Shown piece by piece: positions 2,444-61,440 of a DNA stretch of 64,000 nucleotides. Position 1 is the first letter of the stretch. Each line of letters starts with the position of its first letter. Under the pieces are notes generated by a model, which made no database searches, was not told where the DNA came from, and was given only the letters and a program-made list of their open reading frames with translations. A program made the translations under genes and the position numbers. This DNA comes from a virus, in IMG/VR virus record IMGVR_UViG_3300045988_137032, positions 32,001 through 96,000 of that record. One strand, given 5' to 3'.

Positions 2444-4561
2444 ATGAAAGGACTGATCTTAATGATTCGATTAAATGAAGCTTCTCTTGAGAGAAGTGAT
2501 TTTATCAAGTTATGGAAAGATGAAATGACTCTCAATATGACCCGTATGAATCCGGAATGGGATCATGATGATATTGAGAAGGTTTTGGATAAAATGCTTC
2601 TGGAACAAATGATGATTCCGGAAGTAGAGCTAGATAATAACTATACAGGCGAGCATAAAGATGCTTCGTCATTGAGTGTTTTGGATTGGGTATTAAAGCG
2701 GAAACCAATTGTCGCTGGTAATGCCACATTTTATAAGAATCAATTGGAGGCTATTAACCCGATTGCAGACATGGTTAATGGCTTCCTTATTGAGCGTAAA
2801 GCTGTGAAAAAGAAGATGTTCCAAATTGAGGATGATCAATCCGATGAGTATAAAGATTTGGATCGTCTTCAGGGTAACGTGAAGCGTCTGGCAAACTCTT
2901 ACTATGGCGCTTCTGGTATGCCAAAGGCAGCATTCTATTCCAGATGGTCTGGCCCTGCAACAACAGGTACAGCACAGTCTGTTATTTCCACTACGGAAAC
3001 TTTGTTTGAAGGTTATCTCGTTGATAATTACAAGTTCGTTGATGATAATGAATGCTATCATTTTATCAATGAGATTCTTAAGCAAGACTATAAGATTCCG
3101 AAGTGGGTTAAACGGGTATCTGAAGGTGAGTTGGTTGAAAGACTCGTTGGAATGTTTTATGAAGATACCTATGTAACTAACTGGGGAGTTGCTGTAGCAG
3201 ATATGGTTCATAATCTTAGTGAAGATGATAGAACCAGAATCTATTACAAGAATAACTTCCTTGAATTTACGAGAGTACATGAAAAGGTTCTTGATCTGTA
3301 TGACGATCTTTTTGCAGCAGTTAAGAATCTTCCCTATGCAGAAACTTATGATGAAATTCCTGATGAATTCAAACCGATGTTCACGAAGGGTAAAGATCAT
3401 GATAAGGTAAAAGCATACAATGAATTCGTGAATACAGAATATTTCTTGAATCCGAATTCTCCTCCTGATTCTGTCCATGGAATTCTGGATGAATTGAAAG
3501 ATCTCTATATGAAATTCGTTTATATTCCGTTTATGTCCATTGACAGAATTCACAGACTGAAATACTTCATGCGGAAAACTGTTTGCATCGTTGATACAGA
3601 TTCTAATATTCTGAATATTGATGCTTGGGTAGATTTCTGTAATGAGTATATCCTTAAGAATTCTTCTTATGGTAGAAGTGCAGAGAATAATAAGTTCATT
3701 TGTGTTAATACTCTGACTTATTATATCACTGCTGCTGTCCAGCATACTCTGAATGAGTATGGACTTCATTCTTATATTCCGGATGATTATCGTCCTATTT
3801 TCAATATGAAGAATGAGTTCTACTTCCAGAAGCTGGTTGTTGGTAAGAAGAAAAAGCGTTATATCTCTGCAATTAAACTGCGTGAGGGTAACATGTTCCA
3901 TCCCTATAAACCTGACGTTAAAGGTTTCGATTATATGAAAGCTGGTACAGCAGAACTTGCTAAGGGCCGCTTTGATATGATCGTAAAGAAATATGTCCTT
4001 GAGTCTGAGGTTCCGGATGTATCGGCTATCTTGAGTGAACTTGCAGCGTTTGAGAATGATATTCGTGATTCTCTCCGTAGAGGTGAACTTACATATCTTT
4101 CTCTTGCATCTGCAAAAGATAAAGAAGCATATGCAAATCCGTATTCTCAGCAAGCATTCCGTGGAGCAATTGCATGGAACGCATTGTATCCTGCGGATGC
4201 AATTGAGTATCCGTCTAAGGTCAGTATTCTGAAGCTTACTACGTTTACAGAGAATGACTTGAAGGATTTGAATAAAACCTATCCTGAAGTATACGATTGT
4301 CTCATGAAGAATGTATTCCATTCTCCTGATAGAGAAATTGCAAAGAAGGGATTGCAAGTTCTTGCTATTCCTTCTGGTCATACCATTCCTGAATGGTGTC
4401 AGCCATTTATTGATGTCCAGACTGTTATCGGCAACATCATGGCTCCGTTTAAGGGAGTTCTTGATATCTTTGGTATCAATAATAGTACGGTTGGTAAGAC
4501 TTATAGTGCAGCTTCCGTAAATCGTAAAACTTCGAAGTTCTCTAATATAGTTAGATTCTAA
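2444..4561 (+). CDS. family-B DNA polymerase, polymerase-domain fragment (fingers/palm/thumb only)
   Basis: Motif B KRLANSYYGASG (KxxxNSxYG), motif C CIVDTDSNIL (DTDS) and KKKKRY (KKRY). No exonuclease motifs and no motif A (DxxSLYPS) in the 150 aa before motif B. Alternative start ATG 2462 has better SD spacing. Confidence 0.85.
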   Translation: MKGLILMIRLNEASLERSDFIKLWKDEMTLNMTRMNPEWDHDDIEKVLDKMLLEQMMIPEVELDNNYTGEHKDASSLSVLDWVLKRKPIVAGNATFYKNQLEAINPIADMVNGFLIERKAVKKKMFQIEDDQSDEYKDLDRLQGNVKRLANSYYGASGMPKAAFYSRWSGPATTGTAQSVISTTETLFEGYLVDNYKFVDDNECYHFINEILKQDYKIPKWVKRVSEGELVERLVGMFYEDTYVTNWGVAVADMVHNLSEDDRTRIYYKNNFLEFTRVHEKVLDLYDDLFAAVKNLPYAETYDEIPDEFKPMFTKGKDHDKVKAYNEFVNTEYFLNPNSPPDSVHGILDELKDLYMKFVYIPFMSIDRIHRLKYFMRKTVCIVDTDSNILNIDAWVDFCNEYILKNSSYGRSAENNKFICVNTLTYYITAAVQHTLNEYGLHSYIPDDYRPIFNMKNEFYFQKLVVGKKKKRYISAIKLREGNMFHPYKPDVKGFDYMKAGTAELAKGRFDMIVKKYVLESEVPDVSAILSELAAFENDIRDSLRRGELTYLSLASAKDKEAYANPYSQQAFRGAIAWNALYPADAIEYPSKVSILKLTTFTENDLKDLNKTYPEVYDCLMKNVFHSPDREIAKKGLQVLAIPSGHTIPEWCQPFIDVQTVIGNIMAPFKGVLDIFGINNSTVGKTYSAASVNRKTSKFSNIVRF

Positions 4562-4607
4562 TGATAACTATTAGCTATTTTATATAAAAAGAAAGGATTG
4601 GCACAAT

Positions 4608-5360
4608 ATGAGCGATTATGGTTACACCCCGAATGATATTTCTTATGAGGAGTTTCTTTCGGAAGCTCCTCTGGATTTAATCAAGGAAAGCATCAGAACC
4701 CAATTCTCAGATCCAATCGATTATAATAAAAAGGACTATATCGCATCCTTCATCAACATGTACAAGTACTCTGAGGAGAAAGCAAGTGCATTTGAAGATG
4801 AGGATACCGATAGCATCCATTATCTCCGTGATAATTTCTATGCATTCATGATGTCCATGTTTTCGAAGAAGCTTGGTGTTGGAATCAATGATTTCGATGA
4901 GATGAGCATGGATGATCAGGATGAAATGATTCATTACGTTTACAGATTCTTCCTGAGTAATTGCAAGAAGAATTTCACAAATATCGTAATGAATCACATC
5001 GAAGAAAATCATGATGTTTATGCATCTATTGCAGATGATGAAGAAGATGTCACTAAGAATTCCATGAAGCGATATGTGGATGACCCTGCTGATGTATATG
5101 TGCTGAGTCATCTTCGTGAAATCATTCAAGAAGCTTTGAATGGCGACATGGATGTTGACGAATTCCTTGATCAGTGTGATAGCACAGAAGATCCTTGTCT
5201 TGAAACTGCTTTCGTCAGAAATAAGTATGAAGACTTTACTCTGACTGGTAATTTCGTTCCTCTGTATTTTGATCTCACTGATTACAAAGACTTCTTAACA
5301 GAAGTTGAGTCTAAAGTACGACATAAAATCCTTAAGAAGTATAATAAAAAGAAGGATTGA
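4608..5360 (+). CDS. hypothetical acidic protein (250 aa)
   Basis: AAAGGA SD 10 nt before the ATG. Follows the polymerase gene after a 46-nt gap. Confidence 0.7.
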   Translation: MSDYGYTPNDISYEEFLSEAPLDLIKESIRTQFSDPIDYNKKDYIASFINMYKYSEEKASAFEDEDTDSIHYLRDNFYAFMMSMFSKKLGVGINDFDEMSMDDQDEMIHYVYRFFLSNCKKNFTNIVMNHIEENHDVYASIADDEEDVTKNSMKRYVDDPADVYVLSHLREIIQEALNGDMDVDEFLDQCDSTEDPCLETAFVRNKYEDFTLTGNFVPLYFDLTDYKDFLTEVESKVRHKILKKYNKKKD

Positions 5361-5441: not shown

Positions 5442-6149
5442 ATGGCTTATAACAACAATAATCGTCGTAGTGTTTCCACTAACATCAAGACTCTTTACGG
5501 AGACACTGCATCTATGAGTCTGTCTTACTGGAATGATATGATTTCCATTAAGATGAATCCTTGCACTGGTACCAACGCAGATGGCGTTCGTCAGTACGAT
5601 CGTAACCGTAGTTTCTCCACTGCTCTGTCCATTCAGAAGTCCAAGGCTCTCGTTGACCTGATCGAGGAGAATATTCTGCCTCTGATTAAGAGTGTCTCTG
5701 AGGGAAATAAGCTTGAGCATCCTGTTAACGTGGCAGTTCAGTGTGGTGTTAAGAAGGCTATGGTCATTATTCAGTACAGCAATGATGATCGTGGCAAGCC
5801 GTTCGTTTGCCTGTACGGTTACACCTCCAGCAACGATGACGGTACTTGCGAGCAGCAGAATATGTACGCTTACAAGTTTGGTAAGACCAACGTCATCAAG
5901 AACTACAATCCGAACACTGGTGAGGGTGATGTAGTTCAGGTGGAGTCTGAGTTTGAGTTCTTCTACAACGTCCTGAAGAATCAGGCCAGTGCATTTGGTG
6001 CAGCCAGCCACTCTAACAGTTACTTCACTTCTTGGAGCAATGGTGGTGACAATGGTAACCACGGCAATGCGCCTTCTAACTACGGCAACAATTTCCCCAC
6101 CAGCAATGGCGGTAATTCCGACACGTCTGGCGACGATATGCCCTTCTAA
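5442..6149 (+). CDS. putative single-stranded DNA-binding protein
   Basis: A Gly/Asn/Ser-rich tail ends in the acidic tip SGDDMPF, which resembles the bacterial SSB C-terminal DDDIPF. Lies in the replication module. AAGGAG SD. C-ending codon bias. Confidence 0.5.
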   Translation: MAYNNNNRRSVSTNIKTLYGDTASMSLSYWNDMISIKMNPCTGTNADGVRQYDRNRSFSTALSIQKSKALVDLIEENILPLIKSVSEGNKLEHPVNVAVQCGVKKAMVIIQYSNDDRGKPFVCLYGYTSSNDDGTCEQQNMYAYKFGKTNVIKNYNPNTGEGDVVQVESEFEFFYNVLKNQASAFGAASHSNSYFTSWSNGGDNGNHGNAPSNYGNNFPTSNGGNSDTSGDDMPF

Positions 6150-6166
6150 ATAATTCTGATATCTTA

Positions 6167-6214
6167 AAGGCTATCACACACTTATATAGAGTGCTGTGAT
6201 AGCCTTTTATTTTA
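6167..6214 (+). terminator. rho-independent terminator
   Basis: Stem AAGGCTATCACA (6167-6178) / TGTGATAGCCTT (6195-6206), then TTATTTTA. Confidence 0.7.
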
Positions 6215-6233
6215 TAGGAAAGGAATGATACAC

Positions 6234-6989
6234 ATGGCGGAAGGAGCACAATCAGTATTTTTAAATTCTGATTATGTCGTAATCCAGTATATTGATATGA
6301 TTAAATCACCATATCTCGTACTACTTGATATTATCAGAACGAATCCGAATCTGAGAGAAGTCCTTAAGATTGAAGAGATTGAAACTTTCGATACTGCTGC
6401 TCTTTATGAGTGGTATGTAAATAGAAAGCATCAGAATTTCTTCATTGATTTAAACCGTGATCGTGAGAAGTATCCAGATGAATTCATGGATGGTTTACTT
6501 GCAGATCAAATGTGCCTGGCAAAAGAATTCTATACGAATACCAATATGCTCTGTACTGAATTCATGCTCAAATTCTTAAAGAGTAAGAATGATATGGTGA
6601 AAGATGTCATTATCTATTTCCCATTCAATACTCCTTATGCAAAAGAAGATTTGAGAGAGAATATCGGACATAGCTTTACTTTCATGAGTGACTTTGATGA
6701 GATTTGTAAGAAGTGTGGTAGTAACTGCACTTACTTCTTATCTGATATTGATCTCATTAATCGTATGGAGAAAAATAAAGTACTTGAATTTTCTTCTGTT
6801 ATTCTTCCGATTGAATATCGGTATAATAAGAAGAATATGAATGACTTCAAAATTGACTTCGATAAGAAGTTGAAAGATGTTGTATTTAAGCTCTCTTTCA
6901 TGAGAGCATGTACTGTTGAAGATCATGACAATGGATCTTTTGATAGAACGGATGTGAATCTGAATACCTATCAGAATCCAGTCATGTAA
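6234..6989 (+). CDS. hypothetical protein (251 aa)
   Basis: The ORF starts at 6225, but ATG 6234 sits 9 nt after GAAAGGA. Confidence 0.65.
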   Translation: MAEGAQSVFLNSDYVVIQYIDMIKSPYLVLLDIIRTNPNLREVLKIEEIETFDTAALYEWYVNRKHQNFFIDLNRDREKYPDEFMDGLLADQMCLAKEFYTNTNMLCTEFMLKFLKSKNDMVKDVIIYFPFNTPYAKEDLRENIGHSFTFMSDFDEICKKCGSNCTYFLSDIDLINRMEKNKVLEFSSVILPIEYRYNKKNMNDFKIDFDKKLKDVVFKLSFMRACTVEDHDNGSFDRTDVNLNTYQNPVM

Positions 6990-10212: not shown

Positions 10213-11907
10213 ATGAACACAGACAGCAAGACAACTGAAACGGCCGTAAGTGCGACTTCGTTACGACCGAAGTTCCCGAATATCCCTCGGTCTGAGTGGA
10301 CCGAGAAAACCGCACCCAAAGCACCAATTACTCAGTGGAAACCTAAGCGCGATAAAAGTGATCTTTATTCGGAAGCAGATGGAAGAGTATTTATCTTCCA
10401 TTTTGAGAAGTTTGACTTACCTGATAAGGTAGCAACTTACGATCGATTCTTCGTGAATAAGTTGTCTTACGGTAGTCAGCTTCCTACAATCTGCTCCTAT
10501 ATCAATTACTTCATTAAGAAGTATGATTTGGATCATGAAATTCCCACAGCATATCTGAAGCTCAAGTTCTCCATTGATAAACTGGTCGATGAGGATACTG
10601 GACTGAACGTCTATAATGAAGAAACGATGGATCAGTTCATTAGTCTCATCTATGAAGTGATGTTCACCCCGACAGTTGTTGACAAGATCAAACGATTGGT
10701 TGAAGATAACTATCTGGATGACATTGAGTCTACGGATAATTCTCGTTATCTGAAAGATTCTAAGAAGCATCTTGAAAGTCTTGAATTCAGAAATATCCAT
10801 GTGAAAGTGATGCTTCGCATTAGTTTTGGTATGAAGCTGATTGCCCCCGTTATGTGCCACTTCTTCTACGTGAACCATATGAAACCGGAGCGAGACAGTG
10901 ACGTTATCTATAACTTCTATGCCAGACTCTTTGATCTGTTCAATGAGCCGGGTATGAGCCTTTATAACAAACTCTTCGTTTATGTCAAAGCGAAGGTTCT
11001 GGAGAATAAGTCTCATAATACCGTGATCTTTGAGCAGCGTGAGATTCTCGGCTGGGATGGTTATGTCGTCATTAATTCCTTCCTTCGTAAGGTTCTGATC
11101 AGTGAAACGATCATCAAGTATACGTTCAGTGAGCACTATAGCCCGAAGACGAAGAAATACCAAGAGAATATCATCGGCTTCAACAAAACGATTATCAAAT
11201 ATCAGTTGATGTACTTCTTGAAAGAGCAGTATGCGAAGAACATGACTGAAGTAACATCCACAAAGAACACCGACGGATTGTCCGGACAGGATAAGATGGA
11301 GATGAACCTCACCAAGATTGATGAGGGCATGGTTGTTATTGCGGATGCAAACATCTCTTCCGAAATCGAACGCTTGAGAAGAGAAATCGATTTCGACATC
11401 ACTGATGATGAAATCAATTATTATGTGAAGAACCATAGTCCGTCTCCTCTGCAAGTCCAGATGGTATATTCCTACTGGGCAAAGGACTTTGGTGTCTATC
11501 GCAATATGAGCCTCGCAAGTCGTGTCGAATACACGATTCTTATGCTTATCCTGAAAAAGCGTTTGCTTATCAATGCTGGTAATTCTGAGGATAGTGTCAC
11601 AAATACTTGTGCACTGGCTTACATCATTTCCGGTAACGTGAATGGTACCGTGAATACCAGACAGATTCGCAAGAGTCGCTTTGTCGATAAGGTTGAGAAG
11701 AGTGCTCTCTACAAAGATTTGTGTGAGAATAAGTATAGTCAGCTCATTTCGATTCGTCCTGAATACATCAAAGAAATCCTCTCGAAGTTTATCAATACTT
11801 CCTTTACCTATGTGGTTTACGAAGCTCCTGATCTGTTAGGTCAACCTATTGAATACGATGAGGATACCATTTCTGATGAGCTGCTCTTCTTCCTCAAGAG
11901 CATTTAA
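10213..11907 (+). CDS. hypothetical protein (564 aa)
   Basis: The ORF starts at 10150, but ATG 10213 follows GAGAGGAGAG SD. Confidence 0.7.
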   Translation: MNTDSKTTETAVSATSLRPKFPNIPRSEWTEKTAPKAPITQWKPKRDKSDLYSEADGRVFIFHFEKFDLPDKVATYDRFFVNKLSYGSQLPTICSYINYFIKKYDLDHEIPTAYLKLKFSIDKLVDEDTGLNVYNEETMDQFISLIYEVMFTPTVVDKIKRLVEDNYLDDIESTDNSRYLKDSKKHLESLEFRNIHVKVMLRISFGMKLIAPVMCHFFYVNHMKPERDSDVIYNFYARLFDLFNEPGMSLYNKLFVYVKAKVLENKSHNTVIFEQREILGWDGYVVINSFLRKVLISETIIKYTFSEHYSPKTKKYQENIIGFNKTIIKYQLMYFLKEQYAKNMTEVTSTKNTDGLSGQDKMEMNLTKIDEGMVVIADANISSEIERLRREIDFDITDDEINYYVKNHSPSPLQVQMVYSYWAKDFGVYRNMSLASRVEYTILMLILKKRLLINAGNSEDSVTNTCALAYIISGNVNGTVNTRQIRKSRFVDKVEKSALYKDLCENKYSQLISIRPEYIKEILSKFINTSFTYVVYEAPDLLGQPIEYDEDTISDELLFFLKSI

Positions 11908-11915
11908 CTAATATT

Positions 11916-11957
11916 ATCCACCAACTGTATTATCTCTTGCAGTTGGTGGATTTCTTC
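11916..11957 (+). terminator. rho-independent terminator
   Basis: Stem ATCCACCAACTG (11916-11927) / CAGTTGGTGGAT (11940-11951), then TTCTTC. Confidence 0.7.
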
Positions 11958-12037
11958 ATATAAGTTATACTAAGTTGCCCAAACTTGTATTGAATTATAT
12001 ATCATATATTTGAATAGATAGAAAGGTGAGTGATAGA

Positions 12038-12415
12038 ATGGTCAATCTATTCATACACGGATGGGAGATTGTGCCTATCTGGTTTAAGATAATCTTTATC
12101 TTTGCAGTGCTTAATGCCGCTTGGGACATATGCATGAAAGTCATAACTCGTATTGTCACATTTTATTTTGCAAAAGAACTCGTAAAAGAGAAACTAAAAT
12201 TTCTCATATCAAAACGAGATTTGATTCGAGACTGTATGATAGAGTACGGCTGGAAATGCTATGAAAAAGACAAAGTACGGTATTATGAATCAGGTCTGGT
12301 TAAAATGACGGAGATGGAACTTTTTAAAAATATCATGCGCAATAATTGTGCAAGTGATCCTTCGGAAGTCACGACAAGCATTGATTCCGCTAATAACAGC
12401 ACGAATACAAAATGA
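12038..12415 (+). CDS. small membrane-anchored protein, paralogue family member 1
   Basis: N-terminal hydrophobic segment, then a YGWKCYEKD.. module shared with the next genes. Confidence 0.6.
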   Translation: MVNLFIHGWEIVPIWFKIIFIFAVLNAAWDICMKVITRIVTFYFAKELVKEKLKFLISKRDLIRDCMIEYGWKCYEKDKVRYYESGLVKMTEMELFKNIMRNNCASDPSEVTTSIDSANNSTNTK

Positions 12416-12427
12416 AAGGATAATTGA

Positions 12428-12787
12428 ATGGAAATATATGGAAGAGTTTTCTGGTTTTTATTAGGCTCCTCGTTATTCATTTGCAGTCTAATGCTTCTTT
12501 TCATTGATCCTGTCACGGACTTCATGTGGAAGATTCACTGTATCAGGGTGGATAATAAACTGGAACGTCTTGTTCGTGACTACATGAAAGAATGTGGATG
12601 GAGGATCGTATGGGATAAGAGCATTCGTGGTTGGATGTGTATCAGTAGAAGTGGTTTTAGAATCACTTTGAAGAATGCATGTAACTACGTAAAAGATCAC
12701 AACGATGAAAACGATCCATATTATTGGGCAAACGATTTTATGGTGTGGAATTATGTGGACGAAAGGGATACTAAAAAATGGACTTAG
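12428..12787 (+). CDS. small membrane-anchored protein, paralogue family member 2
   Basis: N-terminal TM segment. CGWRIVWDKSIRGWMCISRSGFRITLKNACNYVKDH aligns with member 3. Confidence 0.65.
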   Translation: MEIYGRVFWFLLGSSLFICSLMLLFIDPVTDFMWKIHCIRVDNKLERLVRDYMKECGWRIVWDKSIRGWMCISRSGFRITLKNACNYVKDHNDENDPYYWANDFMVWNYVDERDTKKWT

Positions 12788-16426: not shown

Positions 16427-16500
16427 TGGCTGCCCTGTCCTGTTACGATCAGGATTCAGTAGTTTCAAAGACTACTGGCTTACCATTGGCCTACAGGGCA
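16427..16500 (-). tRNA. tRNA-Gln (anticodon UUG)
   Basis: Cloverleaf folded by hand: acceptor TGCCCTG/CAGGGCA with U1-A72 and G73 (Gln identity features); anticodon loop CTTTGAA; encoded CCA; T loop ATCGTAA. Confidence 0.85.
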
Positions 16501-16513
16501 ATATGTATTTATC

Positions 16514-16568
16514 CAGTATATGATCTGCTATCCAAGGTCAAGCAGGAAGGATAGCAGATCATATACTG
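16514..16568. repeat. perfect 20-bp inverted repeat (hairpin) inside the tRNA operon
   Basis: CAGTATATGATCTGCTATCC (16514-16533) and its exact reverse complement (16549-16568), with a 15-nt loop. Confidence 0.8.
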
Positions 16569-16667
16569 ATTCTAGGAGGTTATCTATACGCAGCACAAAT
16601 GGTAAAGACTACACCCATTGCACGTGCGGTAATGTCTTAGAAGAGGATATATTTTGTATACCCTCCA

Positions 16668-16758
16668 TGGCGCCAGCACTCGGGTACGATCCGAGGATAC
16701 GTTGTTAGCGTATGCCGGTTTTCAAGACCGGTGTATTCGACCACTCTACCATACTGGC
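16668..16758 (-). tRNA. tRNA-Ser (anticodon UGA), type II
   Basis: Acceptor GCCAGTA/TGCTGGC, G73, CCA. Anticodon loop CTTGAAA. 19-nt variable arm (ATACG/CGTAT stem). T loop ATCGTAC. Confidence 0.85.
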
Positions 16759-16803
16759 TTATAATGAATATCCATCCCATATCCTGTATACAATGGATAT
16801 TCT

Positions 16804-16878
16804 TGGTGCCGGATGTTGGGATTGAGCCAACTTTTGAGAATTACAAATTCCCTGTCTTCACCATTGGACGAATCCGGC
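16804..16878 (-). tRNA. tRNA-Thr (anticodon UGU)
   Basis: Acceptor GCCGGAT/ATCCGGC, A73, CCA. Anticodon loop TTTGTAA. T arm GTTGG-CTCAATC-CCAAC. Confidence 0.85.
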
Positions 16879-16884
16879 TAGATA

Positions 16885-16963
16885 TGTCAATACTCGGACT
16901 TGAACCGAGACCCTTTCGGACTACCACCTCAAAGTAGCGTGTCTGCCTTTCCACCATATTGAC
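16885..16963 (-). tRNA. tRNA-Leu (anticodon GAG), type II with short variable arm
   Basis: Acceptor GTCAATA/TATTGAC, A73, no encoded CCA. Anticodon loop TTGAGGT. Variable region TCCGAAAGGGT. Canonical T arm CTCGG-TTCAAGT-CCGAG. Confidence 0.75.
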
Positions 16964-17023
16964 ACATATTATTTCTTTTTATTAGAGATAACTATTTGTT
17001 CTTGTGAGTGAATCTTTATATTT

Positions 17024-19288: not shown

Positions 19289-20155
19289 ATGGCATCTGAT
19301 GAGTTTTTCAAATTATCTAAGATGGCCCATAATCGTATCAATATCAAGCAGACTCAAAAGGGTGGAAACAATATCATCCAGTGTCAGAATATCCACATCG
19401 ATCAGAATATGAATATTACTGGTGATGGAAACCATGTAACTGGTATTCATATCGGAGTTGATGGAGATGTCATTGACGATTTTAACAATGGGAAGAAATC
19501 TGCTAATGATGTCAGGAATACAGCTCTCTATGGTGGATCTACCAAGAAAGAAAAATATCTGAAGAGAAAAAGGTATCACGGAATTCTCAATAGTGATCCA
19601 GAAGACTATAAAACTGCAGAACCACTTGAGGATTTCCTTCACTTCTACGAAACGAATGCTTATAAGGAAGGATATCTTCTGGAACGAAAAATCAAAGGAG
19701 TTATTCACGATAGTGAGAACTTTAGGATTCTTCCTGCGTTTATGTCGAATAAGTTTAGTAAGCTTTTCTCGACAAGGAATATCTACAGTGAATCTGCTAA
19801 AGATCCGATTCTTGGTATTGAGGTAGATAGGGCATATAATATCTACTATCGAATTACAGATAACGCTGTATTCTATATCATCAGTAAAGATGTGCCTGGA
19901 TTCAAATCGTTTTGTCCTTTTAGTCTTGAAATGTGTCATCTCGTTGAGCTTCGGTATTTCAGGAAAGATAATACTTCGGCTCCCGTTTTCTATGATCCTA
20001 AGAATGATTATCTGTATACAAAAGATGATAATACGATCATTCTTAGTAAGGTTACAGAAACCAGTTTTCAGAAGTTCCTCGATCTCTTATGGGCAATGAA
20101 ATTTGAAATCTTCATTGTAATTCTTATTATTCTCATCTATATCAATTTTCACTAA
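19289..20155 (+). CDS. hypothetical protein with C-terminal TM anchor (288 aa)
   Basis: GGAGG SD. C-terminal FEIFIVILIILIYINF hydrophobic segment. Confidence 0.65.
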   Translation: MASDEFFKLSKMAHNRINIKQTQKGGNNIIQCQNIHIDQNMNITGDGNHVTGIHIGVDGDVIDDFNNGKKSANDVRNTALYGGSTKKEKYLKRKRYHGILNSDPEDYKTAEPLEDFLHFYETNAYKEGYLLERKIKGVIHDSENFRILPAFMSNKFSKLFSTRNIYSESAKDPILGIEVDRAYNIYYRITDNAVFYIISKDVPGFKSFCPFSLEMCHLVELRYFRKDNTSAPVFYDPKNDYLYTKDDNTIILSKVTETSFQKFLDLLWAMKFEIFIVILIILIYINFH

Positions 20156-20158
20156 AAG

Positions 20159-20209
20159 AATAACCGCTGTGGAAGATTTATATCAACCACAGCGGTTATT
20201 TTATTTTTT
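20159..20209. terminator. bidirectional terminator between convergent genes
   Basis: A 14-bp stem, 20159-20172 / 20187-20200, then a T-run. Confidence 0.75.
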
Positions 20210-20671
20210 CTTCTTATTGAGATAATACTCTTTCATCTCAAACTTATCACATGTCTCAAATCCATGCTTTGCATGATAATTACCTACATGCTTTCTTGGG
20301 AAATCCTTTTCATTCATTCCTCGAATACAACTACCAAGGAATTGTCGATTCTTTCCATTCGTAATGAAATGCTTACACAGATAACAGCATCTACTCCTGT
20401 GATGTGCTCTCACACAGTCATGTTCTTTTTTATAGTAATACTGAAGATAATCCATGTAGTCCATTACAAGATTCTCTTTCGTCCAATCAACTTCTTCTCC
20501 AACGTCTACTTCTTCAAAGAAGTAGGAATATACGTCATCATATCGACTGTCTGTATTTGTTAGAAAGTCTTCCATCCTAGCACCCGGAATTCCCTTGTAG
20601 ACATAAGGATGGTTATTCTCTACCCAGGTATCATCGTGGTGAGGAAAAAAGGAGACACGATACGTGCTCAT
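20201..20671 (-). CDS. Cys/His-rich small protein (156 aa)
   Basis: AAAGGA SD. C-terminal half RSRCCYLCKHF..GSCIRG..HAKHGFETC. Confidence 0.65.
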   Translation of the reverse strand: MSTYRVSFFPHHDDTWVENNHPYVYKGIPGARMEDFLTNTDSRYDDVYSYFFEEVDVGEEVDWTKENLVMDYMDYLQYYYKKEHDCVRAHHRSRCCYLCKHFITNGKNRQFLGSCIRGMNEKDFPRKHVGNYHAKHGFETCDKFEMKEYYLNKKKK

Positions 20672-20699
20672 ACATAATCAGTCCTTTCTATATATTTTT

Positions 20700-21400
20700 A
20701 CATACACCATTACACTAACGTAATCTCGAAAGTAGAATGGTAGTCAGTGTTTTTAATAATTACTACCACTACATAGAGATAGCAAGGTTTTAATTCGGTG
20801 TAATCCCGAAGCGATGTCGTGATGACATTCGTAACGCTTAATTCCTTCCATTCATAGTCCAAGCCTGGGCACCGACGCGCCTATTCGTAGCTGGATTAGA
20901 CTACCGTTTTTAGTAGCGGGCTAGGTGATAAATAATAGGGTGTTTGGAAGGACGTGTGGTTTAAACGAATTAAACTGAGTTGCTAGTAATCTCCATACAT
21001 GGAAAACTAGCAGACAGGTAAATGCGGACCTGTCGGAGAGTAGACTTGTATACGCATCCTTGGAGGTGTAGAGGATCGCCGTTGTTTTCGGGATCAGTAA
21101 ACGATATCAGAAACCGCTTGTCAGGATATCCTAGCGCCTAACGGCGTTTTGATTTTCTGGCGAATAACAGCGTGTTATTGGTATTGCAGGTTAACCCTCC
21201 CTCTCTAGCGATTACTGTAAATGATTTCATTTGCAGTTGTTCTATATTTGCTGTTTGAAGACGAAAGTCCCCTTCAGATGGCCATAATGCCTTTCAAAAT
21301 TGATTGATAATCACCACATGTACGGCTTCGTTGTTTCACCGTATATGTGGTGATTATCAATACCCTATACGACATGTAGTTAATTTTACCCACGGAAATA
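20700..21400 (+). ncRNA. candidate large structured ncRNA A (family unassigned)
   Basis: No ORF of 60 aa or more on either strand. G+C visibly higher than normal intergenic DNA. Many nested helices, and the mismatches in two stems are G-U only on the + strand. Boundaries are approximate. Confidence 0.5.
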
Positions 21401-21424
21401 AATAACGGAAAGGGTGTTTTAACT

Positions 21425-22141
21425 ATGCCGAAATATAAACTTCTTCCTGTGCAAGGAAAAACTACAGTAAATGCTCCTCCTCTTTATATTGTGGTTGCAC
21501 AGGAAGATTTCATTGCTATGGATGGAACTTTTATTCCCTGTGGCACTGAAGGAGGATTTGTAGAAAGCGAAGCTTGCATGCCAAATACATCCAAAGATAA
21601 AAGCTGGATTTATGCTACCAATGGTTATGTAGTTGACAATGCAAAAATTACGAATAGCGTTATCAAGAATGGGTACATATCCGGAAATGCTACCATTGAG
21701 AATTCTATCATCGATAAGAAATGCAATATCATGGAGAATGCAGTTGTAGTTGATTCTACAGTGGATAGTAGTGTGATTGGTGTATGCTCAAGAATCGTTC
21801 GTTGTAAATTGATTGGTGATAATTGCATCAATCTTTATGAGAATACTCATATCTTAGATTCTACGATTGAGGATTCTTCTATTTCTGGAAATATTCTTAT
21901 CTGGAATTCTAATATCGCAAATTGTGCTATTCATAACACTGAATCGAAATGTAGGTCTTATGAATCCACTCATTTATCCGATAAGACGGAATTGGATTCT
22001 CTCAATTACAATTATCGTGATAAGCATGGTACTGGTGAGTTTGCTAAACGTAATAGACAACTCATGAAAGAATTGGAGCGTGCTTTTGCATCAGGAGAAC
22101 TCCGTGCTGGCTACGATATCCATCAGAAATCTGATAAGTAA
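21425..22141 (+). CDS. beta-helix repeat protein (238 aa), function unknown
   Basis: Imperfect repeats of about 17-20 aa (NSVIKNGYISGNATIENSIIDKKCNIMENAVVVDSTVDSSVIG..) typical of a parallel beta-helix. AAAGGG SD. Confidence 0.7.
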   Translation: MPKYKLLPVQGKTTVNAPPLYIVVAQEDFIAMDGTFIPCGTEGGFVESEACMPNTSKDKSWIYATNGYVVDNAKITNSVIKNGYISGNATIENSIIDKKCNIMENAVVVDSTVDSSVIGVCSRIVRCKLIGDNCINLYENTHILDSTIEDSSISGNILIWNSNIANCAIHNTESKCRSYESTHLSDKTELDSLNYNYRDKHGTGEFAKRNRQLMKELERAFASGELRAGYDIHQKSDK

Positions 22142-22149
22142 ATTAATAT

Positions 22150-23000
22150 TTTAATATCTTCTAAACTATATGGTATGAGAACATGATTAAGAAGATCTTC
22201 TTCTCATGCAATTTGCTTAACGATTGGTGCCATTTGTTAAGCAAGACAGTTTAGAATTATTACCTTTTCCTCTCACGAATTTCTCATCGTAATAATTCTA
22301 AATTTAGGGTTGAGAGCCCGAAGTTCAAAGCCGTACAACTCCCATTCCTACGGCCGGTCCAGTAAGATTCTGGAGATCAAGAACGAAAGTAACTTTAGCA
22401 TGATTTATGGATAGACAGAAGTTACCAATTGCGATATCAGCCGATATCTGCTTGTCATTTGAATGTTACTGCATCATATGGTAATTGGTAGCTCTCCACA
22501 TCTGTCTTACATTCATATGCACATGCTCCACTCTTTTGTAACGTACTTTGCTAGTATTGATCAACGTTCACAGCTCTCACAATAAATCGCGTACGGTTTG
22601 ACGTTGGCCAGTCTCTCCTAAGTCGTGTAAGAGATGCTGTATGCAATTGCATTATAAGGAGTTCGATGATATTGAATCTGTAGCGATTCTATCTAGTCAG
22701 GTAAAATTCCTGTGCTTCAAGCTGTTAAGAAGTTTACCATCCTTTTGGTGATACGCTGAACCACTGTCGCGTATACGCCCCAATAAGTTTATATATAGAG
22801 TATAGGATTATGAACTTTGGGTATACTCAGTCCAGAGTGGGTCATTACCGCTGGTTCCTAGATATACTCGATAGACATACCCCGTCGACTATTCTATGTA
22901 TAACAATAAGAGTGATGAAAACGACACCTTGAAGTAACTCCATTTTAGACTATTCAAATACACAGTAGATGTGAGATAAAACATCTACTGTGTATTTTTA
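22150..23000 (+). ncRNA. candidate large structured ncRNA B (family unassigned)
   Basis: ORF-free. Long-range and local helices, with a G-U wobble only on the + strand. Ends in a strong + strand terminator. The 5' boundary is uncertain. Confidence 0.5.
22957..23000 (+). terminator. rho-independent terminator
   Basis: A 16-bp stem AATACACAGTAGATGT (22957-22972) / ACATCTACTGTGTATT (22981-22996), then TTTT. Confidence 0.85.
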
Positions 23001-23053
23001 CTATTATAACAAATAGGTATGAATGCGTATGGATCTTTTATGATTATATATGC

Positions 23054-23147
23054 CCTCCTGTAGTGTAATGGTAACACGCCGGATTTATGACCCGGATAAG
23101 TTCTAGATTGGAGCAAGATGGGGGTTGGAGTCCCTCCAGGAGGACCA
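23054..23147 (+). tRNA. atypical tRNA-like gene (anticodon position reads UAU; 24-nt variable region)
   Basis: Acceptor CCTCCTG/CAGGAGG + A + CCA. D arm GTGT-AATGGTA-ACAC. Anticodon arm CCGGA-TTTATGA-CCCGG with an A31-C39 mismatch. Variable hairpin GTTCT-AGATT-GGAGC. T arm GGGGG-TTGGAGT-CCCTC lacks C56. Confidence 0.55.
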
Positions 23148-23244
23148 CTTTGTTTTCCATATAAATAGATCCTTTCAAACACATTCATTTGACTGATACA
23201 GAGACTGATGACTATTATGGTTGTCAGTCTCTGTATCATCTAGC

Positions 23245-23263
23245 CCTAAAAACAGTATTCTAA
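23245..23263 (+). promoter_or_regulatory. promoter-like motif class L
   Basis: CCTAAAAACAGTATTCTAA, about 60 nt before ATG 23323. Confidence 0.5.
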
Positions 23264-23322
23264 TCAGTTAGGTTTTTCTCTTGTATTCTTAAATACTAAA
23301 GAAAGGGGAGATAATATAAGTT

Positions 23323-26300
23323 ATGGGTAATACAACTTCAGAGCTGATTCCGAACTACGATGCTATTATCAATAACACGTATGACGAAAGTTGGCTCAAT
23401 AAGCTTCTCCATACTACTGTCGAGAACTCGTTTCAGTTTCTGAAGAGATTGCAGCTCAGCTACTGTAGTGTGGATAGATTCCATTTTACACAGAAAGATT
23501 TCTTTGTGTGTACGGATTATCCGAATAATCTTTGTATCTCTATTCCGAAAGACTTCATTGATGCTACAAAGCGTAAAACTTATCGCTATTCAAAATATTA
23601 TGGTGAATATATCACCTATAATGATATTGCAGAAGATTTGGAGCATCAGTTTGATCCGAGTGATTTGAAACAGACTACATTTGAGTTTACACCATGTATC
23701 CACGTGGATGGAAGAGTTGCTACGAACGTGTTGTTCCGTTGTACTCTGGATGGACGTACTCAGGTTGTCTTTTTGGACATTCCTCCGTATTCGGAATGGA
23801 TTGGTGAAGATGCCAAGCATACGATCGAAGTATTCATGCTTCGGAATACATGGACTCATTCGTTCCTTACGAATAGTAAGGTGATGAGAAATCGACTGAG
23901 ACTTCTTGATACACAGGATGCTGATGATAGCGTAGAAGAGAGAAACGGCTATTATGTCTTTAACTCTACCCTTACTGGTGTTTTAATGACAAAATCTCCC
24001 ATTTTCTATTCTATCCGTTGTGTGAGTAAGCGGAGTGATGACTGCTATGAGACGTTCGGAAATTCCTTGGCTTTTGGTCATGTGGATGCTGATGGTAATC
24101 TCTGCATTCCGGCTACTACTTGGCTGAAAGAATATGTTACGAAGCATACTCTTCTGAATCTGGAAGTTACAATTTTCCATCCGAATTACACCTACGAGAT
24201 TCCGAATCTTCGTGAGGTAAAACAGCGTACTACGAACAAGGATATTTATTCTTGTATTGCAGTATGCCAGCAGGAAGAGATGCTTCACTGGGCTATGCCG
24301 ATTCCGGAAGAAAACATCATGGTTTTCTTTGTGGATAAAAAGACTGGTGAAACTACTTATCTCAATTCTTCCGAACTCACAAATCTTCATTATCCGAATA
24401 TTTATGAGATTCGTACAACAAAGGATATTGCAGATAAGTACTACATCAAACTCTTCTATCTGTACCGTCCTCTGTATAAGAGTCTCACTTATGTGGATCA
24501 ATTTTATTACATTCATAAATTCTTTAAATACCAATACAAGACTTCATACGGTCAGGAAGCTACTTTTGAGGATACTTGCAATAAGTTCCTGTATGATCAA
24601 GTCGATCCGTCTCTCGAGGGTACTCGCAAGTACTTTGATCAGATTTGGAACTATGAGGATGTTAATTACGTCTATAACATTAACGATTATGACCATAGCT
24701 CTGAGTATCCTAATTCTTATGCCTATAAACTTGATAAGGCGAAAGAATTTGGGTTATTGGCACCTGACAAGACAAGTGATTACATTGGCAATGTCAATAC
24801 AACTTCTGATCTTTACTATCTGGACGTAAGCAAAGTAGATTTGACTAACCGTGAGCGTACTACAACGCATGGTGAGGATAAGTCTTCCAATGTTGAGTTC
24901 GGTGAAGTACGATATCTGTTTATTTTCCGTAATGATGGTTCTAAGGCATTGAATCTTCGTTATTGGGTAGACGGATTGCTGTGCAATCGCTATACACAGA
25001 TTCATGTTGGCAATTACGATTATATCTACATTCCGAAAGAATATGTGACTCCGAGTTCTCATATTTACATTGAGAAGTTCTGGACTTACACATATTCTAA
25101 GCACCATGCTTTCTCAAGCATGGATGACATGTTTGATATTGAAGTAAAAGCTCCGAGTTATGTCGTTCCTACATGGCATGACCTCTTTGTCCGTCATAAT
25201 GAGACGGAGAAGATTGATAAGGATCGCTTTATCTTCTATAGTCGTGTCAATATGAATGATTATGAGAAGAGTATGCCTCTTGAAGAGCGGAAGCATCAGT
25301 GTGGTATTCCGGATGATGTCGAAGTCATTGACGGTGATGATGGCTACATGTATATGCGGATTACTCAGAATTATGATACTGATATGCCGCGGTATATGCA
25401 TCTCAGCAAGATTAAAGTAAAGCTTGCTAATGAATCTGATCTGAATAAGGACTTCCAGTTCATTATCAATAAGGATTCGTTTATCAGTCATGATACAATT
25501 CCTGCAAAAACACCTGTGCAGCGTATTCGTATTATGGATAGCACGCTTCCTTGGATTGAAGAAGGTACGTATCTTCGTACTTTCGTTGATCGTCGTCGTA
25601 TTGTATGTAACATCAAGATTGAAGCACTTACTCCGTATGATCTTCGTGCTCGTACTGACTACTATCCGACAATAATTCCTTATATTCAGTCTACTGATGT
25701 TACTCCATATTCGTATAAGCGAGTCTGCTTTGTTCCGGAGATTCCCGAGAACTTCATGATTGACATGTCTCAGTATATTGATACTCCGTTTAGTCTTGAC
25801 TACTACGAAGTATATCTGAACGGTCGTCGTCTGTTTGACTATAATATTGAGTGCATTACTCATCGTTATATCAAGCTTTTCAATGTAAGTTCTCGTTTGA
25901 ACTTTGCTGTGTATCGCAGGGATATGGATCCTTTCATCCTTGGTCATGCTCCTAATAAAGAGAAGACACCGATGGATGAATTCATCACGAATGGTCTCAT
26001 TGATCAGACTACGAAGGATAACTTCATTGATAATCTGATTGCTGAGAAACATCCCGGTAGTACTCCTGGTGAGAATACTGAGATCAATGTCAATGATGCA
26101 GTTACACCTGATGATACGACTACTGATCTTAAGAGATTCTACACAGATGTCATTATTCCTGAAGGTGTCACTAAGCCCCAGACTTGGATGCTCGATGAGA
26201 ATGATATCAAAAATAATTATCCCGCAGTATATGAAACTTACACCAAGAAGCATAAAGTTGTCATTCGTCCCAATGTCAACTTCGATGCTCTCCTGTGCAT

Positions 26301-37495: not shown

Positions 37496-37506
37496 TTAAA
37501 CTACTT

Positions 37507-37560
37507 AATACATGAAGCACATTCGTATAAGCCGAATAGTGCTTCATGTATTATTCTTTC
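37507..37560 (+). terminator. rho-independent terminator
   Basis: A 14-bp stem, 37507-37520 / 37539-37552. Confidence 0.7.
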
Positions 37561-37604
37561 GACACAAGAAACATTTGGAGACGGATAAGGAGTGAATTGT
37601 GTTT

Positions 37605-37787
37605 ATGAGGCAATGTCCGAATTGTGGATCTACTAAAGTTTATAAATGCAGTAAATTAAATAAGACCACGGGATATATTGATATCTGGTATGGGTGTATG
37701 CATTGCTCTTATACCAGTGATGCATATCCAAGTGACACTGATAAAGGGATTGAGCTTATGTCTGATTGGAACGATCTAGCATCATAA
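37605..37787 (+). CDS. small zinc-ribbon protein (60 aa)
   Basis: CPNCG..(26 aa)..CMHCS, two CxxC pairs. AAGGAG SD. GTG 37599 is an alternative start. Confidence 0.55.
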   Translation: MRQCPNCGSTKVYKCSKLNKTTGYIDIWYGCMHCSYTSDAYPSDTDKGIELMSDWNDLAS

Positions 37788-37796
37788 GCAAAATGA

Positions 37797-37815
37797 CTTG
37801 AAAACACATCTTTAA
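37797..37815 (+). promoter_or_regulatory. promoter-like motif class L
   Basis: CTTGAAAACACATCTTTAA, about 45 nt before ATG 37859. Confidence 0.45.
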
Positions 37816-37858
37816 TACTCCGAATTAAAATTCACTATAATAAAGGAAGGTGTTAGTA

Positions 37859-52571: not shown

Positions 52572-52891
52572 TCGTCATCCTCATCGTCAAGATCAGCATC
52601 GTCATCATCGGATTCATCACCGCAGATGTTCATCACATCATCGATGGACAGATTCTTCTTAGACTGAAGGATCTTCTCAACCTCCTGATCATCACCATCC
52701 GTAACGGGCAGCTTATCGATCAGGGCTTCGATATCAGCATCGGAAATATCAACGTCTTCCATCATGGTCTCAGGAACCAGAGCACAAAGCGCAGCTTCGG
52801 TTGATTCATCTTCCATCATAGACTCGATGTACAGGCGATCACGCTCAATACTAGCACGCTCTTTACGAACGGACTTAAATGCTTCGATCAT
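52568..52891 (-). CDS. highly acidic small protein (107 aa)
   Basis: The ORF extends to 52933, but ATG 52891 follows AAAGGA. C-terminal DESDDDDADLDDEDDE. Confidence 0.65.
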   Translation of the reverse strand: MIEAFKSVRKERASIERDRLYIESMMEDESTEAALCALVPETMMEDVDISDADIEALIDKLPVTDGDDQEVEKILQSKKNLSIDDVMNICGDESDDDDADLDDEDDE

Positions 52892-52955
52892 AGTTATGTC
52901 ATCCTTTCTTATTATAGTAAAATAGACGAGCAATCACTAGGGTAATACTCGTTAG

Positions 52956-52975
52956 CTTAGCTTATTGTTTTTAGA
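52956..52975 (-). promoter_or_regulatory. promoter-like motif class L
   Basis: The minus strand reads TCTAAAAACAATAAGCTAAG, matching the copy at 35159 at 18 of 20 positions. Confidence 0.55.
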
Positions 52976-53020
52976 CCATATAATTAATGGCTCATAACTG
53001 TATTCATCCTATTCTATAAT

Positions 53021-53030
53021 GATATATTAT
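53021..53030 (+). promoter_or_regulatory. promoter-like motif class E
   Basis: TATAATGATATATTATATTG. A 17-nt identity with the copy at 53311-53328. Lies 33 nt before ATG 53063. Confidence 0.5.
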
Positions 53031-53062
53031 ATTGATATCATAGAGGAAAGGAGGATACAGTT

Positions 53063-53251
53063 ATGAGTACTGTAAGCCATATGTGCCCGAGAGTATTCGC
53101 AGATTTATTCCTGCAATACTACCCGGGCACTGTGCAGCGTACACCTACGGGTAATAGTACCACCATCGCTATGCCTGAAGGATGTGTATTCGTTCCTGAG
53201 TATGAGGTATACAACCTCAAAAACGGAATGAGTTACATTAAGAAGGTGTAA
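53063..53251 (+). CDS. hypothetical small protein (62 aa)
   Basis: AAAGGAGG SD. Confidence 0.55.
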   Translation: MSTVSHMCPRVFADLFLQYYPGTVQRTPTGNSTTIAMPEGCVFVPEYEVYNLKNGMSYIKKV

Positions 53252-53318
53252 CGCCGAGAAGAAAGGATGGATGTGCAACAACCACATTCATCCTTTCTTT
53301 TTTGTCGTTTTTATAATG

Positions 53319-60215: not shown

Positions 60216-60527
60216 TGAATTATTCAATATAGTCCACGTTAAACCTGTTAAACTGCGGGAAGTTCCTTAGAGCTCTAGGTTACCAAGTATAGTTTGGTGA
60301 CAGCTATATGGCTGATTTTAACAGAATCGGATATGGTAAAAAGACTTAGAGATTGGATAATCATCGCATCGAAACTTCTGCGAGTAGAAATACTCGTATG
60401 GATTTATTCCACTTAGGGAAGGACGTTCAACGACTATAATACGGGCGCGCTACTTAGTGACTTCACTAAGCAAGTATGGTATAGTCTACTCCCGTACTTA
60501 AATATCGGGAAACCGAGGGTACAAAGG
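60216..60527 (+). mobile_element. group I self-splicing intron (312 nt, no ORF) in nrdD
   Basis: P1 is GTGGAT (60210-60215) / GTCCAC (60232-60237), with a U-G wobble at the 5' splice site. P10 is AATAT (60226-60230) / exon-2 ATATT (60528-60532). The terminal G is at 60527. P-like ACTGCGGGAAG is at 60252-60262. R-like GTTCAACGACTATA (60425-60438) pairs with S-like ATAGTC (60481-60486) as P7. Confidence 0.85.
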
Positions 60528-60637
60528 ATATTGGAACTCACTTCTGGTCTCAGGGTCGTACCGATGAGATTAGAAACCGTTATGTGCATCTGACAGATAT
60601 TCCTGCTGATGGTGAAGAAGTAGAGGAGACTGAATAA
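60528..60637 (+). CDS. nrdD: NrdD exon 2 (C-terminal 36 codons plus stop)
   Basis: Joining T60215 to AT60528-9 makes a TAT (Tyr) codon. This restores RRTCG-YIGTHFWSQGRTDEIRNRYVHL.., which matches the conserved RxCGY(L/I)G...GK..E...R..H tail. Confidence 0.8.
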
Positions 60638-60638
60638 T

Positions 60639-61319: not shown

Positions 61320-61367
61320 TGGGTAATGGTTTTTTCTATTCATAAAACTTTCTCCTTGTTGTAATAC

Positions 61368-61418
61368 AAGAATCCGAGCTAGTAATGACCGCACATCATA
61401 CTAGCTCGGATTCTTCAT
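61368..61418 (+). terminator. rho-independent terminator
   Basis: A 17-bp stem, 61368-61384 / 61399-61415. The T-run is weak. Confidence 0.65.
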
Positions 61419-61440
61419 TGCCAGGATCATAGAAATACCA

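Follow-up and report, generated by a model that had tools for sequence, protein, structure and literature searches.

A 64,000-nucleotide (nt) stretch of viral DNA, positions 32,001 to 96,000 of IMG/VR record IMGVR_UViG_3300045988_137032 and hereafter called the window, carries two long non-coding gaps, gap A (20672-21424) and gap B (22142-23053), on either side of a single protein gene. These gaps almost certainly hold two genuine structured non-coding RNAs, designated RNA A and RNA B, which are two new and mutually unrelated classes with no counterpart in Rfam. They are best read as large phage RNAs situated near tRNA genes and may be analogous to ROOL and GOLLD. Judging from its sequence, the genome that carries them is that of a human-gut jumbo phage of about 260 kb, distantly related to AR9 and PBS1; a jumbo phage had also been proposed in an original prediction, made by a model from the letters and a list of their open reading frames (ORFs). 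The layout proposed there for the island to which both RNAs belong (20672-23322), in which a single protein gene has a non-coding stretch on either side and a terminator and an atypical tRNA-like gene come last, was recovered with all its parts. The predicted coding share of 27% was confirmed as well (717 of 2651 nt), whereas the figure of more than 90% given for the rest of the window compares with about 85% for the whole window, as estimated from a crude greedy set of ORFs.

Covariation and non-coding status of RNA A and RNA B

Relatives of the island were gathered from protein homologues (down to about 50% identity) and from motif scans of IMG/VR and metagenomes, and are referred to by locus number where they need to be told apart. 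The distinct sequences aligned, 14 for RNA A and 13 for RNA B, fell into about four clades and showed pairwise identities of 53-99%. Structures were obtained by consensus folding of the family alignments (RNAalifold), and pairs were then counted explicitly and compared with controls in which pairing partners were slid by 1-3 alignment columns:

RNA A, 142 pairs tested: 92.9% of cells in standard pairs; 44 pairs changed on both sides (7-10 in the slid controls)
RNA A, covariation score: 0.311 (0.05-0.08 in the slid controls); observed score attained by 0 of 500 shuffles
RNA B, 80 pairs tested: 98.1% of cells in standard pairs; 40 pairs changed on both sides (2-8 in the slid controls)
RNA B, covariation score: 0.450 (0.04-0.08 in the slid controls); observed score attained by 0 of 500 shuffles

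Cells with G.U pairs far outnumbered those with A.C (183 versus 47 in RNA A, 59 versus 7 in RNA B), although prediction of the structures on the + strand biases this ratio. Invariant G.U pairs were also present inside otherwise covarying helices.

The longest ORF in either gap did not exceed 67 codons, nor 109 codons when any single stop codon was reassigned. Mismatches against relative L011 revealed no codon periodicity, their frequencies by phase being 0.32/0.32/0.33 in RNA A and 0.41/0.39/0.34 in RNA B, and indels in both RNAs were mainly of 1 nt. Conservation of the gaps was about equal to or above that of adjacent coding sequence, with long blocks that do not vary in any clade, the most distant included. 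For the gene between the gaps, which encodes 238 amino acids (aa), mismatches by codon position were 0.39/0.29/0.55 and indels measured 3, 6, 9 or 24 nt; it is a real coding gene under purifying selection.

Decayed protein genes, or an alternative genetic code, are hardly credible as an explanation of the gaps. Public gene calls do put - strand ORFs of 160 or 188 aa into gap A in three relatives (L011, 5470-5952; L013, 5364-5930; L014, 1473-2039), but these calls are spurious, for relatives that share 88% identity already have them in different frames. The lack of 3-nt periodicity, the many 1-nt indels, the short ORFs obtained under any single stop reassignment and a conservation as good as or better than that of adjacent coding sequence all speak against this explanation. 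A practical lesson is that gene callers annotate spurious proteins within such RNAs.

Covariation, the excess of G.U pairs and the lack of coding signal thus bear out the claim that the regions flanking the protein gene are structured RNAs on the + strand. The low folding energy that had been invoked in its support did not hold up: z-scores were about -7 for both gaps and -2 to -6 for coding controls of the same window, and since coding controls reach -6, folding energy is not evidence here; the actual evidence is covariation. Three points speak against too strong a statement of the case. The fractions of paired cells are optimistic because the alignments used for the test had also served to derive the structures, a bias that the slid controls correct in part. 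Most of the covariation comes from about four clades, so that independent events are fewer than the cell counts suggest. Finally, consensus folding energy favours the + strand modestly, the margin being small for RNA A (-77.7 versus -71.3).

A cmscan search with all 4227 models of Rfam 15, run on the whole window at gathering threshold and on 20100-23400 at E-values (E) up to 10, matched tRNA only, as did a search of four diverged relatives at E up to 1. Group I and group II introns, RNase P, transfer-messenger RNA, T-box, riboswitch, ROOL, GOLLD and OLE were all rejected as identities, none being matched at permissive Rfam thresholds. No second copy of RNA A or RNA B was found in the window, and no conserved complementarity of at least 7 base pairs (bp) was found between the two RNAs.

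The elements of RNA A were delimited as follows:

20711-21245, + strand: conserved core of RNA A, about 540 nt with at least 16 helices, from alignments and RNAalifold
21214-21237, + strand: last hairpin of RNA A, covarying, followed by the T-rich run TTGTTCTATATTT

Invariant sequence begins at 20711, and the core contains long invariant single-stranded blocks such as TTACACTAACGTAATCTC, TTCGGTGNAATCCCGAAGC and GTAAATGCGGAC...TCGGAGAG...ATACGCATCC, as well as a long-range helix (21062-21069/21194-21200) that covaries. The extent originally proposed for RNA A needs correcting: the conserved core stops at about 21245, and the poorly conserved spacer 21246-21300, which lies between the core and a 22-bp hairpin farther downstream, is not part of it. 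The stem of the last hairpin differs by clade and yet stays complementary (GTAAATG/CATTTGC, GCCACAA/TTGTGGC or GCCCT/AGGGC). It is followed by a T-rich tail in three of the four clades, a possible weak terminator.

RNA B is larger and comprises two closed domains:

22175-23005, + strand: RNA B, structured non-coding RNA of about 830 nt
About 22175-22300: variable 5' part of RNA B, roughly its initial 130 nt, some of which L017 lacks
22311-22317/22573-22579: long-range covarying helix closing domain 1
22659-22664/22934-22940: invariant helix closing domain 2
22641-22652, + strand: palindromic hairpin, a perfect 12-nt palindrome ATGCAATTGCAT
22956-23003, + strand: intrinsic terminator, a perfect 17-bp hairpin (22956-22997) followed by TTTTT

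A second long-range helix (22376-22380/22557-22561) covaries too, and two similar 9-nt loops, GUAAGAUUC and GUAAAAUUC, are borne on covarying stems. In the terminator stem, 9 of 13 pairs changed on both sides across clades; with its T-run on the + strand, the structure has the features of an intrinsic terminator.

At 22641-22652, the sequence in other clades is ATGTAGCTACAT, ATGCCATGGCAT or ATGTCATGGCAT, the last of which includes a G.U pair. The central tetraloop is accordingly AATT, AGCT or CATG, its self-complementarity being kept through paired substitutions. These changes sit where a single hairpin cannot pair, and are therefore as expected under selection for an intermolecular loop-loop or duplex contact. 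This pattern hints that RNA B may self-associate through the loop, a candidate intermolecular contact; against this stand the small number of independent double substitutions, two, and an exception, ATGTAGATACAT in L017. A mechanistic precedent is the pRNA of phage phi29, a structured RNA of about 170 nt that is part of the DNA-packaging motor and oligomerises via intermolecular loop-loop pairing, although no Rfam match to it was obtained here.

Probable transcription signals of the island

Late promoters of phage AR9 have the consensus AACA-N6-TA/G and are recognised by its non-virion polymerase (PMC5312081). At least 12 intergenic sites of the window fit CCYNRAAAACA-N6-TAA, a motif equivalent to this consensus, and their recurrence suggests that the gut phage may use an AR9-like non-virion RNA polymerase. 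These sites and the signals found at the borders and inside the island were the following:

+ strand: CCYNRAAAACA-N6-TAA sites at 13978, 23251, 29471, 32742, 35166, 37803 and 61447
Minus (-) strand: CCYNRAAAACA-N6-TAA sites at 2368, 47120, 52969, 54747 and 57013
20154-20205: left border hairpin between the convergent genes for a 288-aa (+) and a 156-aa (-) protein; 24-nt arms, 4-nt loop, A-run before and T-run after
21303-21361, + strand: hairpin of 22-23 bp; arms 21303-21325/21339-21361, 23 nt, 96% complementary
21371-21383, + strand: promoter-like element GACA-N6-TAA (RACR-N6-TAAT in the family), 9 nt past the preceding hairpin and about 40 nt before the ATG of the protein gene
22164-22175, + strand: promoter-like element AACT-N6-TA (AACTATATGGTATG), 22 nt past the stop codon of the protein gene
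23008-23019, + strand: promoter-like element AACA-N6-TA (AACAAATAGGTA, AACAAATAGGTATG) ahead of the tRNA-like gene
23194-23238, + strand: hairpin of 21-22 bp closing the tRNA unit, 12 nt before the next late promoter
23251-23262, + strand: late promoter of the gene for a 1001-aa protein, CCCTAAAAACA-GTATTC-TAA; right island border, near-identical in all relatives

The element ahead of RNA B keeps AACTAT and GTAT invariant in all clades. It shares the motif of the AR9 and PBS1 late promoters and differs from their consensus by one base, a T at the fourth position. It also closely resembles the element before the tRNA-like gene, and a near-identical sequence (AACAAATAGTTA / AACAAATAGTTAT) stands ahead of the second tRNA cluster (- strand, near 17000). 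To judge from its motif, the 21371-21383 element may be a degenerate late promoter of the protein gene, and the 20154-20205 hairpin is a probable bidirectional terminator forming the left island border. The 'class-L' motif that had been noticed at about 23245 is real and corresponds to the late-type site at 23251, one of at least 12. Likewise, the island proved to be co-oriented and bracketed by a terminator (20154-20205) and a late-type promoter, as had been claimed.

Promoter-like elements precede RNA B, the tRNA-like gene and, probably, the protein gene, which makes separate expression of the three possible. The reading towards which we lean, with no great assurance, is that each of the two RNAs is transcribed on its own and acts in trans, without any connection to the protein encoded between them. 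The island would then be a cluster of RNA genes in which each element forms its own transcription unit. Much as the tRNA genes nearby would, RNA B would start from a late promoter, here with one mismatch, and it would stop at its intrinsic terminator, while the hairpins at 21303-21361 and 23194-23238 would be places where units end or are processed, just ahead of the next promoter. Both RNAs would be made by the phage polymerase, would act in trans as stable folded molecules and would belong functionally with the phage tRNA genes, as ROOL and GOLLD do in other phages. That the motifs are promoters, that the units are transcribed separately, that the RNAs act in trans and that RNA B associates with itself is what we infer from these features. 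A few observations weigh against them. An AACA-N6-TA motif was sought as a promoter of RNA A and none was found; a weak candidate, absent from the L012 clade, is the AT-rich, early-like sequence CTATATATTTTT near 20688-20700. The assignment of promoters consists in motif likeness to AR9, whose polymerase is about 27% identical. Lastly, no terminator lies in the 22 nt from the stop codon to RNA B, so that mRNA read-through may link RNA B with the protein gene.

Regulation in cis, with RNA A as a 5' leader controlling the protein gene through the 22-bp hairpin and RNA B as a structured 3' untranslated region, appears unlikely. It would agree with the shared orientation of the elements, with a strikingly conserved hairpin about 63 nt ahead of the ATG, with the weakness of RNA A's own terminator candidate and with the short distance (22 nt) from stop codon to RNA B. 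The stem base of this hairpin (TAATCACCAC/GTGGTGATTA) is invariant and its apex covaries, 6 pairs having changed on both sides; it has G.U pairs on the + strand and is without a U-run. However, RNAs of 540 and 830 nt with many invariant loops go far beyond the needs of one 238-aa gene, and the poorly conserved spacer parts the RNA A core from the hairpin. Furthermore, no alternative partner of the hairpin arms proved to be conserved when the alignment was inspected, promoter-like elements stand after the hairpin and ahead of RNA B, and no Rfam riboswitch or leader family was matched. The sole candidate for an antiterminator-type partner of the hairpin, AGGTGAT at about 20928, was rejected on alignment inspection, as it fails to covary in the L012 clade.

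Long hairpins of the island are better regarded as unit ends or processing sites than as attenuators, because the 21303-21361 hairpin is followed by a promoter-like element just as the 23194-23238 hairpin is followed by the late promoter. The former is thus probably an RNA-level end, a processing signal or an insulator between RNA A and the protein gene. The original prediction had located this hairpin correctly, whereas its proposed role as an attenuator coupling RNA A to the protein fits less well with the promoter-like element 9 nt 3' of it.

It is very improbable that the gaps function as DNA, as a replication origin, a packaging site or protein-binding sequence. Several long inverted repeats and the palindrome would fit such elements, and the invariant base of the hairpin stem could bind a dimeric protein. 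Iteron-type tandem or direct repeats were nevertheless searched for without success, dozens of nested and long-range helices show compensatory changes, G.U pairs are tolerated on one strand only, and RNA B is bracketed by a promoter-like motif and an intrinsic terminator.

Other AT-rich motifs near TTATATATTAT were observed in intergenic gaps at 1497, 11993, 17020, 29113, 44972 (- strand), 51967 and 53018. They resemble the AR9 early promoter AAATATATATTAT of the virion polymerase and, as a loose pattern, are not statistically enriched.

The beta-solenoid protein and the question of an RNA-protein module

The island has a single long ORF, and a divergent gene adjoins it on the left:

21425-22141, + strand: protein gene, 238 aa, only long ORF of the island
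20201-20671, - strand: gene for the 156-aa protein, Cys/His-rich with CxxC-like motifs, kept in all relatives, divergent neighbour of RNA A

For the 238-aa protein, AlphaFold2 (mean predicted local distance difference test, pLDDT, of 61) produced a beta-solenoid at residues 70-170 or so with pLDDT 70-90, a small low-confidence N-terminal beta domain and a C-terminal helix. Sequence and fold matches were to LbH domains of ADP-glucose pyrophosphorylase and eIF2B, to pentapeptide-repeat proteins and to pectate lyases. The profile match to ADP-glucose pyrophosphorylase LbH domains in the PDB reached E 6e-5, Pfam Hexapep_GlmU scored 21.5 bits against a gathering cutoff of 23.3, and Foldseek with BFVD returned generic solenoids only, with low TM-scores. 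The NCBIfam family YdcK_fam (NF040481) was hit at E 2.2e-9 along residues 22-123 only, and its 36.7 bits fall short of the cutoff of 350, which does not make the protein a member.

A direct search of PHROGs with the window protein gave no match. In a profile search of 1.84 billion representative proteins, the own clade was followed by a gap and then by hundreds of proteins, many of about 215 aa. These relatives share an N-terminal motif, M.KY.LL...LY.I.A..DF...G..GG[FY][VI]ES...P/S...SW[IV], followed by hexapeptide-like coils; they belong to phrog_5070 or phrog_7964 and resemble the YdcK family. In terms of sequence, the 238-aa protein is a divergent YdcK-like beta-solenoid, probably an ordinary phage gene product and a distant relative at best.

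The whole protein is mildly acidic, with an isoelectric point (pI) of about 5.4-6.8 in 9 of 11 homologues. Its clade-specific helical tail, conserved as YRDKHGT...RN...EL.RAKA.GELRAGYDI, is lacking in the relatives inspected that have the N-terminal part and the solenoid, and gave no match when searched alone. The tail is of mixed charge (pI 6.1-10.0 across homologues). Of the beta-helix with a basic, helical tail that had been foreseen, the solenoid and the helix are thus predicted and the basic character is not retained. No RNA-binding domain was identified in the protein, and nothing else pointed to RNA binding. In L020, the 273-aa call at 6001-6822 for homologue P0003 probably has an over-extended start, as other members begin with MPKYK.

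The distribution of the island was assessed by scanning IMG/VR for four RNA motifs, for the protein and for its 1001-aa neighbour, and by searching JGI metagenomes and GTDB genomes for RNA motifs, the motifs being matched exactly. In these collections RNA A and RNA B were found in this phage clade only, and the beta-helix gene is present wherever the contig reaches. Motif matches outside the clade were rejected as chance by nhmmer profiles, that of L024 being a coding-region coincidence, and no close homologue of the protein was found outside the clade. The finding is limited by this narrow distribution, one clade of gut phages. The order of elements is the same in every relative, at protein identities of 48-100%: 156-aa gene (- strand), RNA A, beta-helix gene, RNA B, tRNA-like gene and 1001-aa gene.

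An RNA-protein module, in which the beta-solenoid would bind RNA A, RNA B or both and the three genes would constitute one ribonucleoprotein system, had been put forward originally and now seems doubtful. Every family member found does have all three parts, in one shared orientation, the helical tail is conserved and specific to the clade, and the interval between the gene and RNA B has no terminator. The nearest precedent for such a module is OLE, a large conserved structured RNA that works as a ribonucleoprotein with Oap proteins (PMC9723947, PMC12054373). OLE differs in being a chromosomal RNA of extremophilic or anaerobic Bacillota and not of phages, and no sequence or structure match links it to RNA A or RNA B.

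Synteny is uninformative on this question because gene order is kept throughout the neighbourhood in all relatives, with no member lacking any part: the RNAs and the gene do travel together, but so does every neighbouring gene. Other evidence is contrary to the module. The protein has no RNA-binding domain, is mildly acidic and belongs to a broad family common in phages. This YdcK-like family (phrog_5070, phrog_7964) also exists without these RNAs, since the island had no BLASTN match among 50,697 records of isolate phages. Moreover, the 156-aa Cys/His-rich protein, for which no Pfam or PHROG family was matched, is as plausible, or as implausible, a candidate for an RNA partner as the beta-helix protein.

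The tRNA-like gene, comparable RNAs and the phage genome

The last element of the island begins 49 nt after the end of RNA B, a further cluster of four tRNA genes being located at 16427-16964:

23054-23147, + strand: tRNA-like gene, anticodon TAT, 21-nt insert in the variable region, found by ARAGORN and Rfam

It reached 55.2 bits with the Rfam tRNA model (RF00005), well above the 29-bit gathering threshold. Scores of relatives were 42.9 (L012), 29.6 (L015) and 28.3 (L006), and L011 and L017 were unreported at E up to 1. ARAGORN called Ile(TAT) in four loci (window, L011, L019 and L020), an unassigned tRNA with a four-base anticodon in one and 'Pyl' in another, and no tRNA in five. The family has a covarying acceptor stem, an encoded ACCA and an A as discriminator base. 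The UAU anticodon lies in a loop YYUAUAR, on a stem closed by a mismatch, and a class-II-like variable arm consists of a covarying stem of 4-5 bp and a conserved 7-nt loop, YAGAUWR. This arm and the UAU anticodon recur at homologous positions of L011, L012, L015, L017, L019, L029 and L031, and several relatives have a non-canonical T-loop, CCCGAUA. A canonical class I bacterial tRNA-Ile was ruled out by the 21-nt variable insert, the mismatch, the T-loops and the inconsistent ARAGORN calls. The tRNA had been called atypical beforehand, in agreement with detectors that fail or disagree in about half of the relatives.

In relative L006, an ORF of 266 aa with weak matches to HNH endonucleases and helix-turn-helix proteins is inserted at the tRNA-like gene (11667-12570, corresponding to about 23088 of the window). 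The insertion leaves a truncated 5' copy of the tRNA, followed by a complete copy that is divergent in sequence. The same ORF occurs in the other tRNA cluster (about 4400-5205, - strand) of L002, L004, L006, L008, L009 and L010 and is absent from the window. By its matches and position, it looks like a free-standing homing endonuclease targeting tRNA genes.

ROOL and GOLLD are RNAs of phages and prophages that often lie near tRNA islands and form homo-oligomers, and GOLLD expression rises late in infection (PMC12286853). Like RNA A and RNA B, ROOL is hundreds of nt long and elaborately structured, is encoded by phages or prophages near tRNAs and is without a known protein partner. Unlike ROOL, RNA A and RNA B are confined to one clade of jumbo phages, and no Rfam match between them was found at E up to 10. 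ROOL oligomerises, whereas for RNA B the palindromic loop is the only hint of oligomerisation. GOLLD resembles RNA B in its size of more than 800 nt, its phage or prophage origin, its adjacent tRNAs (sometimes inside GOLLD) and its division into a variable 5' and a conserved 3' part. It differs in that no Rfam match was obtained and in that the tRNA-like gene here lies behind the RNA B terminator with its own promoter-like element. The context of ROOL and GOLLD, phage-encoded and near tRNA genes, is thus found here as well; this is a likeness of context, not homology.

Several large bacterial and phage RNA classes were recently found to form RNA-only cages. A speculative and rather improbable extension would be a phage RNA machine, in which homo-oligomers of RNA B resembling ROOL or GOLLD nanocages, together with RNA A and possibly the beta-solenoid, would act on translation with the tRNA(UAU)-like RNA. 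Its target might be the handling of AUA codons, for example, or ribosomes or tRNAs. Were this so, the island would represent a novel system built on large RNAs, perhaps including a protein, and its bearer would be a phage equipped with transcription machinery of its own.

Very large and intricate RNAs such as OLE, GOLLD, ROOL, HEARO and raiA are rare, and each new class is informative. Here, two unrelated new classes adjoin each other beside a tRNA-like gene, with clean covariation and with probable promoter and terminator boundaries. They provide material for the study of structure and oligomerisation, self-association via 22641-22652 being specific and cheap to test. They also add a further case of large phage RNAs beside tRNA genes, which bears on the frequent co-occurrence of the two.

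Regarding the phage itself, the matching contigs measure 250-263 kb; an identical 238-aa protein is encoded on human-gut metagenome contigs of up to 262-264 kb, and the island of L001 is 100% identical to that of the window. A 688-aa gene upstream of the island matches phrog_3015, a family of RNA polymerase beta subunits (E 8e-48); its best matches among isolates, at about 27% identity, are genes of PBS1, AR9 and Staphylococcus jumbo phages that are annotated as RNA polymerase beta/beta'. From these resemblances, the gut phage of about 260 kb appears to carry its own multisubunit RNA polymerases together with AR9-type late promoters. In the 50,697 isolate phage records, neither the island (BLASTN) nor the 238-aa protein (TBLASTN) had a match. 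Elsewhere in the window, which is densely coding, other non-coding gaps of 360-600 nt were noticed at 52668-53270, 61320-61866, 60233-60638 and 37496-37858.

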